A program made the position numbers. Positions 36,001 to 39,000 of a DNA stretch of 46,008 nucleotides are shown piece by piece. Source of the stretch: a virus (Duplodnaviria > Heunggongvirae > Uroviricota > Caudoviricetes). Location: the IMG/VR virus record IMGVR_UViG_2721755662_000006. One strand, given 5' to 3'. How positions within the stretch are numbered: the stretch's first letter is position 1; each line of letters opens with the position of its first letter.

Positions 36001-39000
36001 GTCCGATAAGTGCGCCAATGCTTTTTACCTTCATTGTTCCCGCACACTGCCGGAGTATCAGAATTTCAGCCCGGCACCACCTCTTCCACCCACTCACCGC
36101 TGCTGTTCTCTGGTGGCGGTAATATCCCGGAGAATATCCCGGCACTTGTTCAGCTCCCGCAGCGCGGCGCAGACTCGCTCCCACTTCTGAACCTGACCTT
36201 TTGCCCGGCGCAGCTCGCGGTTAGCCACATGCAGCGATGGTAGAATCAGGTCATCTGCTTTCGTTTCGGTGACCGATGGCTGTAACTTCACAATGTCTTC
36301 CACGATTTCTGTTTTCATTTCTTCCTGTGTCGTCGTTTCCTGGACTGGTAACGCAACACCTGCTGGCTGAGGAAAGGCTTTACCATCGGTGTCCGCTACG
36401 GATGCAGCTTCCGGCTCTGCCGGTAAATCAGCGCCCGGTATGCAGTAACGAAATTTACCGCCCTGATTCACGCGAATCAGACGCCCTTTGCTGATTGCCA
36501 TGGCCAGCGATGAATTCGCCCGGCGGGAGGTAATCCCGAACATCAGTGCCAGCTCATCCGCCGTTTGTGGGCCATGTTGTTCAATCGCCTCAGTCAGCAT
36601 TTGCGCTGTCACTTTCGGTACCGATGACACTGGTTCACTTTCACCAGCCTGAATCAGCCACCACATCGACCCCTTGTTATCCGCTTCACCGCGGCGCTTC
36701 AGTTTCCACAGTTCGTTGACCGCATCTTCACGGCTGATTCCAAGGCGGGCCGCCACTACCTGTGAAGAGGCTTTTTTCAGTGCTTGCAGTGCGTCAAATA
36801 CGGTTTCCATTAAAATTTCCTCCGACAAAATCGTTTCTCAGATTCAAATAAAACCAGCTGCCTTCCGGCGTTCGTATTCCTGTTTCAGCCGTTCAATTGG
36901 CGTTGGCCCTTGCGGGTGTTTCGCCCCTTCCAGTTGTCGTCGCACTGGCGGAACACTCATCCCGTTACCAACATGCTTTGCCCATTTCGTCAGTTGCCGT
37001 TCCGCAAGTCGTTTTAACTCACCCTGCGTCATCTGGCGCTCAATCCCTCTGGTACGCATTTCGAGGCAGATGTGGTACAGCACAGGCTGTGGCCACGGGT
37101 ATTTATCACTCCCGTCGTATCGCCAGGATTCATTGCGCCAGCGCCGGTACTCTTCCATCACGGCATCCACCGTAAGACCAAATGGATTTGCCCCACTCTC
37201 CGAAATCAGTGCAACAAACTCAGCCAGGTCCGGGGGCCACGTTTCACCCGCCCGGCAGCGGTCCATGCACTGACGGCAGACCAGACGGATTTGCTGTTCA
37301 GTCATCGCACCAATCTGGGCAATCCAGAGCTTCGAAGGTGCGGCCCCGTTCTTCTGAGTCCAGCGGTTCGAATACACCTCCCCCATAAGCTCCCACAGCT
37401 TCCAGGCCGTTTCCGTTGCTGATAAATCCGTTTTCACGTTCCCACTGTTCGCGTGCAGCCCGGATTTCCTGAACTGCCCGTGATGCGGTGCCACCTGGTG
37501 CTGCATGACTTCCCCCCTTGCTGACTGGTTTTACCTGTGCCCTGACGTGCCGCACGTGGCGGGCAAATTTCTGCTCCCACTGAACCTGCGTGAAAATCTT
37601 CCCCTCCGCCATCCAGTAATCCCGGAATGCGGCAAGCTCTGCAGGTGTAAATTCCGGCTCAGGCAGAGCCATACCCCACACTGCTGCCCGTTGTCGAAAA
37701 TCCGGCGACGGCTGCCAGACAGTAGTCATCGAAAATTTCCCGATGGGTTCGCTCAGGCCGTCCAGGTATTCAGGTTCGGCTGTCTGCAACGGCGCACCAT
37801 TCGACTCACTGGTCGGAATACTCTCGCGCGCGTTATGTGTGGGGTTTAATTCTGTATCTGTATCTTTATCTGTCGTGACTTGTCGTGATAGATGCGTGAC
37901 ACGTCGTGACTCATCGTGACAATCAGCATTATGTTTCCGCAGCTTTTCCCGCTCCCGCTGCGCTCTCTTGCGCTCTGCCGGGGATTTTGCCGTTTGCGAA
38001 ACGTTACCATTGTCCTCTTTCAGCACCTGACGTTTTTCCCATCCGGAAATAAGGTCACCATCCAGAACCCGCCCCTGCATTGCATGCAAAATTGAATCAA
38101 TTACGTCTTCCGTCACATCAAGCGCACTTGCTAAATCTTCCGTCGTGACATCAATGTGACCACGTAGTGACACGCCGTGACATGTCGTGACATTTCGTGA
38201 CGCGCTCACCAGAAGGTGGATATACACTGCCATCACTGTTGCGATTGGCTGTCCTGATACCCTGGCAATCGTTCGCCACTTGGGGTCATTTGGCATGTCA
38301 TGCCACAATCTGAGCCAGGCATTAGCCATACTCACCTCTTCTGATACCGAACTTTACCCACGAACTTCCGGAAGAAATCCGGTATAAATATTGTTGGTCA
38401 ATGCACAACAACAGCATTACCAGGCTGACCACCACTGTTAGTCAGGGTGCCCCAGGCGATCGCTACAGCGACAAAATCATCCACATCTTTCACCAGCCGA
38501 TCCCGTCGTTCGACGATCTCCCGGTAATATTCAGAACTGTGACTGCGCATACGGGCCACCAGCAAAGGCGGCATCGCCTTTTCGATCGCCGGTAACAGCG
38601 CCTGAATTTTTTCAACAGCATCAGACGTGTCCTTCTCCACCCAGCGGAAAATTTTCTGGGTATTACGAGCCAGGGCTTCCGGATGGCTGTCGTCGTACAG
38701 TTCCGGGAACGTCATCCCCAGCTCGAAATAAGTCCGGGCTATTTCAGCTGCGGGAACTTTCTCACCATCAGGATATGCCCAGGCATTCATCGCCATACGG
38801 ATGTGTTCATGCTTGATTTTCATGAATCACCCCCGTCTCTGGTTGTGTGTTAGCCTGACACTCGACAGGTAAGCCGTCGGTTGGGTTGGGATAAGAACTG
38901 CTATCAATCTCGTGCGGAGTTACTATCCAGCCAGTTGCTTCACACCAACGTAAAATTTTTTCCCCCGTAAGTTTCGCCCGCCCGGTAATGACATGGCTTA

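Follow-up and report, generated by a model that had tools for sequence, protein, structure and literature searches.

The window analysed here is the whole 46,008-nucleotide stretch of IMG/VR virus record IMGVR_UViG_2721755662_000006, an Stx2 prophage in which the replication initiator gene (37298-38329, minus strand) carries two arrays of short, helically phased direct repeats. These arrays are probably iterons bound by the N-terminal winged-helix domain of the initiator. Together with an A/T-rich tract of GATAMA hexamers (M = A or C) next to one of them, they would constitute the vegetative replication origin of the prophage; a probability of about 0.8 is given to this reading, which is drawn from sequence comparison. 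It is supported by selection acting on the repeat cores at the DNA level, by the concerted change of both clusters, by the co-inheritance of the arrays with the N-terminal domain and by the adjacent A/T-rich tract. The element would be a two-part, lambda-style origin of a new family, to which the initiator would bind and from which replication would start. The original prediction had proposed an origin embedded in the initiator gene, with a layout like that of lambda and with short repeats spaced by one helical turn; all comparative tests agree with this proposal and lend it support.

Two Phased Repeat Arrays in the Initiator Gene

The core of the repeat reads GTGAC on the plus strand and tGTCACGa on the coding (minus) strand. 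Array B (38142-38201, minus strand) contains six direct copies of the latter, spaced by 10-11 bp, and array A (37872-37920, minus strand) contains five direct copies of the same motif, one of them being ATCACG, with spacings of 10, 11, 10 and 10 bp. By direct reading, the plus-strand cores of array A are found at 37875-79, 37885-89 (GTGAT instead of GTGAC), 37896-900, 37906-10 and 37916-20. Those of array B are found at 38145-49, 38156-60, 38167-71, 38177-81, 38187-91 and 38197-201, with spacings of 11, 11, 10, 10 and 10 bp. The two arrays are 224 bp apart; array A encodes residues 137-153 of the initiator (CHDESRRVTHLSRQVTT) and array B residues 43-63 (ASRNVTTCHGVSLRGHIDVTT). The strict 7-mer YCGTGAY is present in 8 of the 11 copies, four in array A and four in array B. 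The three other copies (GCGTGAC, ATGTGAC and TAGTGAC) depart from it by one flanking base, and GTGAC is kept in all of them.

Both arrays were called independently at period 10 by Tandem Repeats Finder, and a separate repeat search placed them in one family. Over the whole window and on both strands, chains of GTGAC at 10/11-bp spacing were encountered in the arrays only, with lengths of 3 and 6. When the window was simulated 300 times under a first-order Markov model, a longest chain of 0 was obtained in 265 runs, of 2 in 34 runs and of 3 in a single run, and a chance origin of the repeats was rejected on this basis. The repeat unit is direct, 10-11 bp long and without dyad, and the region displays what is generally expected of an iteron origin: at least three helically phased direct repeats, conserved as DNA. 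The five and six (T/C)CGTGA(C/T)-type copies at 10-11-bp spacing that had been predicted are thus borne out by direct reading, Tandem Repeats Finder and the simulations. Their location within the initiator coding sequence is likewise confirmed by the annotation of the NCBI Prokaryotic Genome Annotation Pipeline (PGAP; 37298-38329, minus strand). No further repeat array or comparable element was detected in the replication region with Tandem Repeats Finder and the repeat-family search, and within the origin region neither DnaA boxes nor a match to an Rfam RNA family were found.

A lone inverted core (GTCAC on the plus strand) is located between the arrays, at 38112-38116, where the aligned codons of relatives encode 'LDVTE'. 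In one relative with repeats of the GTAACG class (locus L108; the classes are described below), the site aligned to this inverted core is CGTTAC and seems to track the class. Possibly, the lone core is an additional iteron in inverted orientation.

Selection on the Repeats at the DNA Level

Owing to the 10-11-bp period, the motif is read in all three frames. The repeated V-T dipeptides that had originally been noted are present in four copies; the rest are read as S-R/S-L or C-H/G-H. Among 29 distinct close DNA variants from IMG/VR, the cores are invariant and the spacers between them rank with the most variable sites in the gene.

For comparisons over a wider range, a scan with one genome per species gave 63 loci from gamma-, beta- and alphaproteobacteria, Acidobacteria and others. 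Synonymous sites were compared in 17 species of gamma- and betaproteobacteria with repeats of the GTCACG class and about 60-65% protein identity, in columns with an invariant residue. The mean codon entropy was 0.12 bits inside the cores versus 1.56 bits outside (Mann-Whitney p = 1e-5). Inside the cores, the codons are frozen: Val is GTC in 34/34 cases, Thr is ACG in 34/34, His is CAC in 17/17, Gly is GGT in 17/17 and TCA is used in 16/17. Outside the cores, synonymous sites are saturated, Leu, Arg, Pro and Ser being written with four to six codons each.

In array A, the iteron base is retained while the amino acid varies. The residue preceding His can be C, R or G, with a codon that is always NGT, and the residue preceding Ser can be M, A, E, V or Q, with a codon that is always NNG. 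Here, selection at the nucleotide level prevails over amino-acid identity. Judged by these comparisons, the repeats are DNA elements under selection and not peptide repeats; in hundreds of related phages, it is their DNA and not the encoded peptide that is conserved. The objection raised with the original prediction, that they might be only codon-level repetition, is excluded by the use of three frames, by the frozen core codons and by the amino acids that change with the iteron bases kept.

Concerted Change of Both Arrays

Relatives carry cores of the classes GTCACG, GTAACG, CGAACGC and GTGACG, all with a 10-11-bp period, and the ACG at the 3' end of the hexamer is common to all classes. A set of 133 non-identical loci was compared, including IMG/VR loci retrieved with class-2 and class-3 queries, and 120 of these were classifiable. 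Both arrays belong to the same class in 119 of the 120 (86 GTCAC/GTCAC, 24 GAACG/GAACG and 9 GTAAC/GTAAC), and the only mismatch, L141, has an array of mixed type. Between Erwinia (L107, GTCACG) on the one side and Pantoea and Enterobacter (L105 and L108, GTAACG) on the other, a recent switch can be seen. At least five aligned copies, distributed over both arrays, have a C/A difference at their centre; the change is in part silent (Val GTC/GTA) and in part not (His CAC/Asn AAC). Such a concerted change of both arrays would be expected for sites read by one protein and appears hard to explain otherwise.

One position in a basic helix of the initiator (residues about 117-134; about 37928-37981) tracks the class in loci L085-L309. 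The residue is Q in 60 of the 64 readable loci of the GTCAC class (22 more are unreadable), W in 25/25 of the CGAACGC class and F or Y in 7/9 of the GTAACG class; F/Y is also paired with the GTGACG class. Proteins of the GTCACG class possess, furthermore, an insertion of nine residues (GNxETGAKS) just before this position. As a determinant of the class, this residue may serve as a lead only.

Anatomy of the Initiator

The initiator (343 residues, ATG at 38329) is annotated by PGAP in the 100% identical chromosome of E. coli FORC_069 as a 'DnaT-like ssDNA-binding domain-containing protein' starting with MANAWLRLWH. It consists of an N-terminal module (residues 1 to about 135), a basic helix, a linker encoded by iterons and A/T-rich DNA, and a C-terminal DnaT-like domain. 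The N-terminal module is the putative origin-binding part. The whole protein matches a PHROG for 'replication initiation protein', with a weak match to PHROG 10469 ('DnaD-like helicase loader'), and relatives are named 'phage replisome organizer' in NCBI source records. The DnaT-like single-stranded DNA-binding domain is encoded at 37535-37735 (minus strand; Pfam PF17948, E = 1.7e-17, 63.3 bits against a cut-off of 25). Equivalence to full-length DnaT was not found, as NCBIfam NF002770 scores 91.6 bits against a cut-off of 201 and only profile positions 82-156 match.

Residues 1-162 have no match in Pfam or NCBIfam, and the N-terminal domain has no sequence relative in the PDB. A match to the O family (Phage_rep_O) was not found by hmmscan either, at E <= 0.01 for the full protein and E <= 10 for the N-terminal domain. 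The designation 'O-like', used in the original prediction, is therefore appropriate for the position and logic of the gene but not for its homology: the N-terminal domain is a predicted winged helix outside the curated families, followed by the DnaT-like C-terminal domain.

An AlphaFold2 model was built from an alignment of 70 sequences, with a mean predicted local distance difference test (pLDDT) score of 70 and of about 90 in the core. It shows helices at residues 4-14, 16-25 and 29-45, a loop at 46-62, a helix-turn-helix (HTH) at 63-70 and 74-84, a beta wing at 85-96 and the basic helix at 117-134. Beyond residue 134, no secondary structure is predicted and the confidence is low. The predicted HTH and beta wing (residues 63-96) are encoded at 38042-38143 (minus strand), between the arrays. 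Array B covers the codons for the last part of helix 29-45 and for the loop preceding the HTH, a loop in which only residues 48-54 have a pLDDT below 50. The linker that follows the basic helix is encoded by array A together with the GATAMA tract (mean pLDDT of 44-53 for blocks of residues 131-161, and below 50 for residues 143-156). According to the model, both arrays are thus located in weakly predicted segments of the protein, which are also variable in length.

Most relatives have four copies in array B, and six are found in the window and in E. albertii. The six-copy form results from a 21-bp insertion that contains two iterons and adds seven residues to the loop (TCHGVSL). In array A, the relatives have two to six copies. 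The 'duplicated clusters' of the original prediction are indeed two clusters, but not the product of a simple duplication: the two-part layout is conserved across a large family, usually with four copies in array B. In Pseudomonas sp. JAI111 (L110), array B is enlarged and contains copies of either orientation, and the loop has a long insertion.

The GATAMA Tract and the Mobility of the N-Terminal Module

The A/T-rich tract (37845-37871, minus strand) lies directly 3' of array A and reads GATAAA GATACA GATACA GAATTAAA on the coding strand; its full sequence is GATAAAGATACAGATACAGAATTAAA. It is the least stable 30-mer of the gene and the third least stable within 36800-39300, behind the cI/cro intergenic region, and is a candidate DNA unwinding element. 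Runs of GATAAA/GATACA are present 3' of array A in 26 loci, where 92 of the 96 hexamers are composed of GAT and a codon ending in A, even at 58-65% G+C. Other loci have purine-rich A/G tracts at the same position.

The GATAAA/GATACA repeat is also present at the domain junction of ydaU of Rac-SA53 (L002, about nt 470-500) and is common to initiators with unrelated N-terminal halves. It sits exactly where homology switches. In megablast searches, the partner changes at the tract (query 554-574): the C-terminal half (query 1-574) is 87% identical in DNA to Rac-SA53 ydaU, and the N-terminal half, which includes both arrays, shows 84% identity to initiator genes from phages Evi, Tritos and vB_EcoS-640R1. 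The tract may have a dual role, as unwinding element and as recombination joint between an origin-binding and a helicase-recruiting module.

In other genera, the N-terminal module (about 150 residues) is joined to unrelated C-termini. Its helicase partners vary as well. Where the window has a P-like loader, Aeromonas phage pAEv1818 has an annotated replicative helicase and Pseudomonas phage P7869 a primase/helicase. Whatever the C-terminal domain or helicase partner, the arrays stay with the N-terminal domain. At 50% identity, the family comprises 1,790 clusters if E <= 1e-3 is required and 901 if E <= 1e-10 is. Members are present in only 24 GenBank phage records, and none of these is a model phage. 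The gene region is matched at least in part in 2,561 of 5,426 complete E. coli genomes, and with at least 80% query coverage in 658 genomes. A search of plasmids for a natural mini-replicon retrieved only large plasmids with prophage inserts and Pseudomonas records of roughly 51 kb annotated as plasmids, and was uninformative.

Comparison with Known Replication Systems

An iteron origin inside the initiator gene, with the N-terminal domain and the iterons as one specificity module, is classical for lambda, SPP1 and RepA_N plasmids. The element described here resembles the origin of lambda, 933W and P27 (oriLambda) in its position in the middle of the initiator gene and in the order of its parts: along the direction of transcription, the iterons come first and the A/T-rich tract second. 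In both cases, the N-terminal domain and the iterons form one exchangeable specificity module and the C-terminal domain a second one, and the gene of a P-type loader is next. The initiator, on the other hand, has no sequence homology to O. The iterons of lambda are roughly 19 bp long, have internal dyad symmetry and are bound by O dimers. Here, the repeats are asymmetric, direct and of 10-11 bp, with one-turn spacing, so that the predicted difference from the lambda sites is confirmed. Moreover, they form two arrays, which are separated by about 224 bp and have the HTH-coding DNA between them; the A/T-rich tract is a GATAMA hexamer repeat, and the C-terminal domain is DnaT-like. Extra iterons lengthen the initiator in both systems: in oriLambda, where iterons and AT-rich tract are located in the middle of O, two extra iterons add 13 residues to the O protein of 933W and P27 (PMC7466680), compared to seven residues here.

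RepA_N-type plasmid initiators (pSK41 RepA, PDB 4pta) and the DnaD-like 'replisome organizers' of Gram-positive phages (SPP1 G38P, with oriL inside gene 38) are among the closest known systems. Membership in these curated families was not found, given that residues 1-162 lack a Pfam or NCBIfam match and a PDB sequence relative; there is a weak PHROG 10469 match, next to the 'phage replisome organizer' names of relatives. Satellite phage P4 also has two separated clusters of one short repeat. Its ori and crr consist of an 8-bp repeat, are bound by the initiator and are both needed in cis. The P4 alpha protein is, however, a primase-helicase, and its clusters are 4.5 kb apart, in both orientations, and outside the coding sequence of the DNA-binding domain.

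The ydaU-ydaV genes of Rac (the oriJ replicon) have in common with the window the C-terminal half of the initiator, a DicA/RacR-like repressor, a Cro/DicC-like protein, a YdaT-like protein and GATACA repeats at the domain junction. The Rac-type N-terminal half, on the contrary, is unrelated in sequence and without GTCACG repeats; hence, the origin-binding module and the iterons of the window are not those of Rac. Homology to the whole Rac YdaU protein was not found, as only the C-terminal half matches. GTCACG iterons were also looked for in Rac-SA53 ydaU, and none were present; a weak TGTT(C/T) pattern was all that was seen. In the stretch upstream of the GATACA repeats (L002, nt 419-465), this gene has an inverted pair, TGTTCAAACA / TGTTTGAACA, and TGTT at 11-12-bp steps. 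These may be candidate equivalents of the binding sites, for an N-terminal domain of the Rac type.

Proposed Mechanism of Initiation

We infer a mechanism in which the arrays are bound by the initiator and act together through looping, the GATAMA tract is unwound and the helicase is recruited through the C-terminal domain. The initiator would be made by transcription from the cro-side early promoter. Its monomers would bind head-to-tail, one per helical turn, to the five sites of array A and the six sites of array B, and the asymmetric 10-11-bp direct repeats would align the bound monomers along the same side of the helix. The arrays coated with protein, which are about 224 bp or roughly 21 turns apart, would interact and wrap or loop the intervening DNA that encodes the winged helix. 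The resulting strain would open the weakest duplex nearby, the GATAAAGATACAGATACAGAATTAAA tract at 37845-37871. The DnaT-like domain could then engage the single strand and/or the P-like loader, which would deliver the DnaB helicase of the host.

Alternative Explanations

Several observations weigh against an origin at this site. The agreement of the arrays in 119 of 120 loci goes back to a small number of independent class switches, about four or five, and the count thus exaggerates how many independent observations there are. The residues of the winged helix hardly differ between iteron classes, so that the determinant of specificity is not obvious, and the sole class-linked residue, the one in the basic helix, is confounded by phylogeny. 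The AlphaFold2 model is of moderate quality (mean pLDDT 70). In the searchable literature, no experimental evidence of binding, unwinding or autonomous replication was found for these repeats. Finally, array B is absent in a metagenome-assembled genome (MAG) of Edaphobacter (L120), with six copies in array A, and displaced in a Gemmataceae MAG (L137), with five copies at nt 181-221, inside the HTH coding region. Array B may therefore be accessory or regulatory and not part of the core origin. The missing and displaced arrays, and a copy number that varies from 4 to 6, would fit repeats that bind the initiator chiefly for control, by autorepression or a roadblock of the early operon, titration or handcuffing, with unwinding elsewhere. 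In a milder form of this explanation, only array B is a control element, and array A with the GATAMA tract is the origin. Extra iteron clusters are generally known as negative control elements in iteron plasmids and P1. Nevertheless, this explanation is considered unlikely: the order of iterons and A/T-rich DNA, the frozen A/T-rich codons and the stability minimum next to array A correspond to the classic arrangement of an origin, and the replication region contains no other repeat array or comparable element.

It is clearly less probable still that the repeats serve another factor (a host protein, a CII/YdaT-like or Cro-like regulator or a terminase) or are a recombination hotspot, and that they are located in the initiator gene by accident. 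The GATAMA tract is a mosaic joint, which would agree with such a role. However, the arrays co-vary with the N-terminal module and are inseparable from it, from Enterobacterales to Acidobacteria, while neighbours and helicase partners differ; the region also lacks DnaA boxes and Rfam families. Hardly any weight is given to a repetitive peptide needed by the protein, or to neutral tandem DNA made by slippage and tolerated in flexible regions, even if both arrays encode loop or linker segments and the copy number varies. The three reading frames, the synonymous positions frozen only in the cores and the amino acids that change while the iteron bases stay all contradict it. Furthermore, silent GTC-to-GTA changes are concerted in both arrays, and neutral repeats would not stay identical across phyla.

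Genomic Context of the Replication Module

The prophage is lambdoid, with an immunity region similar to that of Rac, and the initiator gene is part of its replication module. In the order of the minus strand, a Cro/DicC-like HTH gene (38807-39082, minus strand) is the first, and a YdaT/CII-like gene (38398-38823, minus strand) is situated between it and the initiator gene. Immediately downstream, the gene of a lambda-P-like helicase loader (36844-37305, minus strand) overlaps the initiator stop by 8 nt. It was identified by Pfam (Phage_lambda_P, PF06992, E = 1.3e-15), by PHROG 109, labelled 'P-like helicase loader', and by PGAP, labelled 'replication protein P'. PGAP places its start at 37305; the open reading frame is extendable by 67 codons upstream (36844-37506, minus strand), where it would overlap the 3' end of the initiator gene in another frame. 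PHROG 15931 (482 positions) covers both the initiator and the P-like protein, as though they were fused in some phages. A CI/DicA-like repressor gene (39190-39690) is divergent. Directly downstream of it, a toxin-antitoxin pair of the RelB/RelE(ParE) type is encoded (39708-40189, plus strand; PGAP names in FORC_069).

The window contains stx2B (27440-27709, minus strand, 89 residues) and stx2A (27721-28680, minus strand, 319 residues) and is therefore an Stx2-converting prophage, with a replication module that is not of the lambda type. Three tRNA genes (28771-29022, minus strand), namely Met-CAT (possibly ileX-type), Arg-TCG and Arg-TCT, are located directly upstream of stx2A, which is the usual arrangement in Stx phages. 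The small RNA STnc100 (27150-27365, minus strand; Rfam, 192 bits) is found just downstream of stx2B, and a sok antitoxin RNA at 33267-33441 (minus strand; Rfam, 113 bits), both above the gathering score. The latter implies a hok/sok-type locus in the prophage. A G+C-rich tandem repeat at 805-1070 (period 36/108 nt, 2.4 copies, 96% match) looks like the collagen-like Gly-X-Y repeat of a tail-fibre gene on the opposite strand.

Implications for Stx Prophages

In the searchable literature, no description was found of the iterons of this initiator family, of the two-array layout or of the GATAMA element. Two 'Eru' typing papers do not mention iterons and origins, and work on the origins of Stx phages deals with lambda-type O/P replicons (PMC7466680). 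The initiator family appears to be undescribed; the family of its N-terminal domain is large, has no curated model and is present in Stx2 prophages. The arrays represent an unusually clean case of overlapping codes, in which the gene of a DNA-binding protein carries its own presumed binding sites and selection at the nucleotide level overrides both synonymous drift and amino-acid identity.

More tentatively, the window may provide the type example for phage origin and initiator cassettes of a class that is large and undescribed and that comprises about 1,800 clusters (50% identity), ranging from Enterobacterales to Acidobacteria. In such cassettes, two phased arrays would bracket the DNA encoding the winged helix, loop or wrap about 220 bp and melt the GATAMA tract. 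The specificity, which would lie in the bases before the invariant ACG, would have been switched several times, each time in both arrays and along with a single residue position in the basic helix. This is possible, although we would not expect it to hold in full. If true, the looping cassette and the covariation of the basic helix would provide a natural, readable recognition code between initiator and iterons, as well as a basis for the typing of Stx prophages by replication type or incompatibility.

The toxin output of Stx phages depends on the replication of the phage genome after induction. The discrete iteron classes predict specificity groups of origins, and such groups could determine whether the several lambdoid prophages of one Shiga toxin-producing E. 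coli strain cross-activate or interfere with one another.

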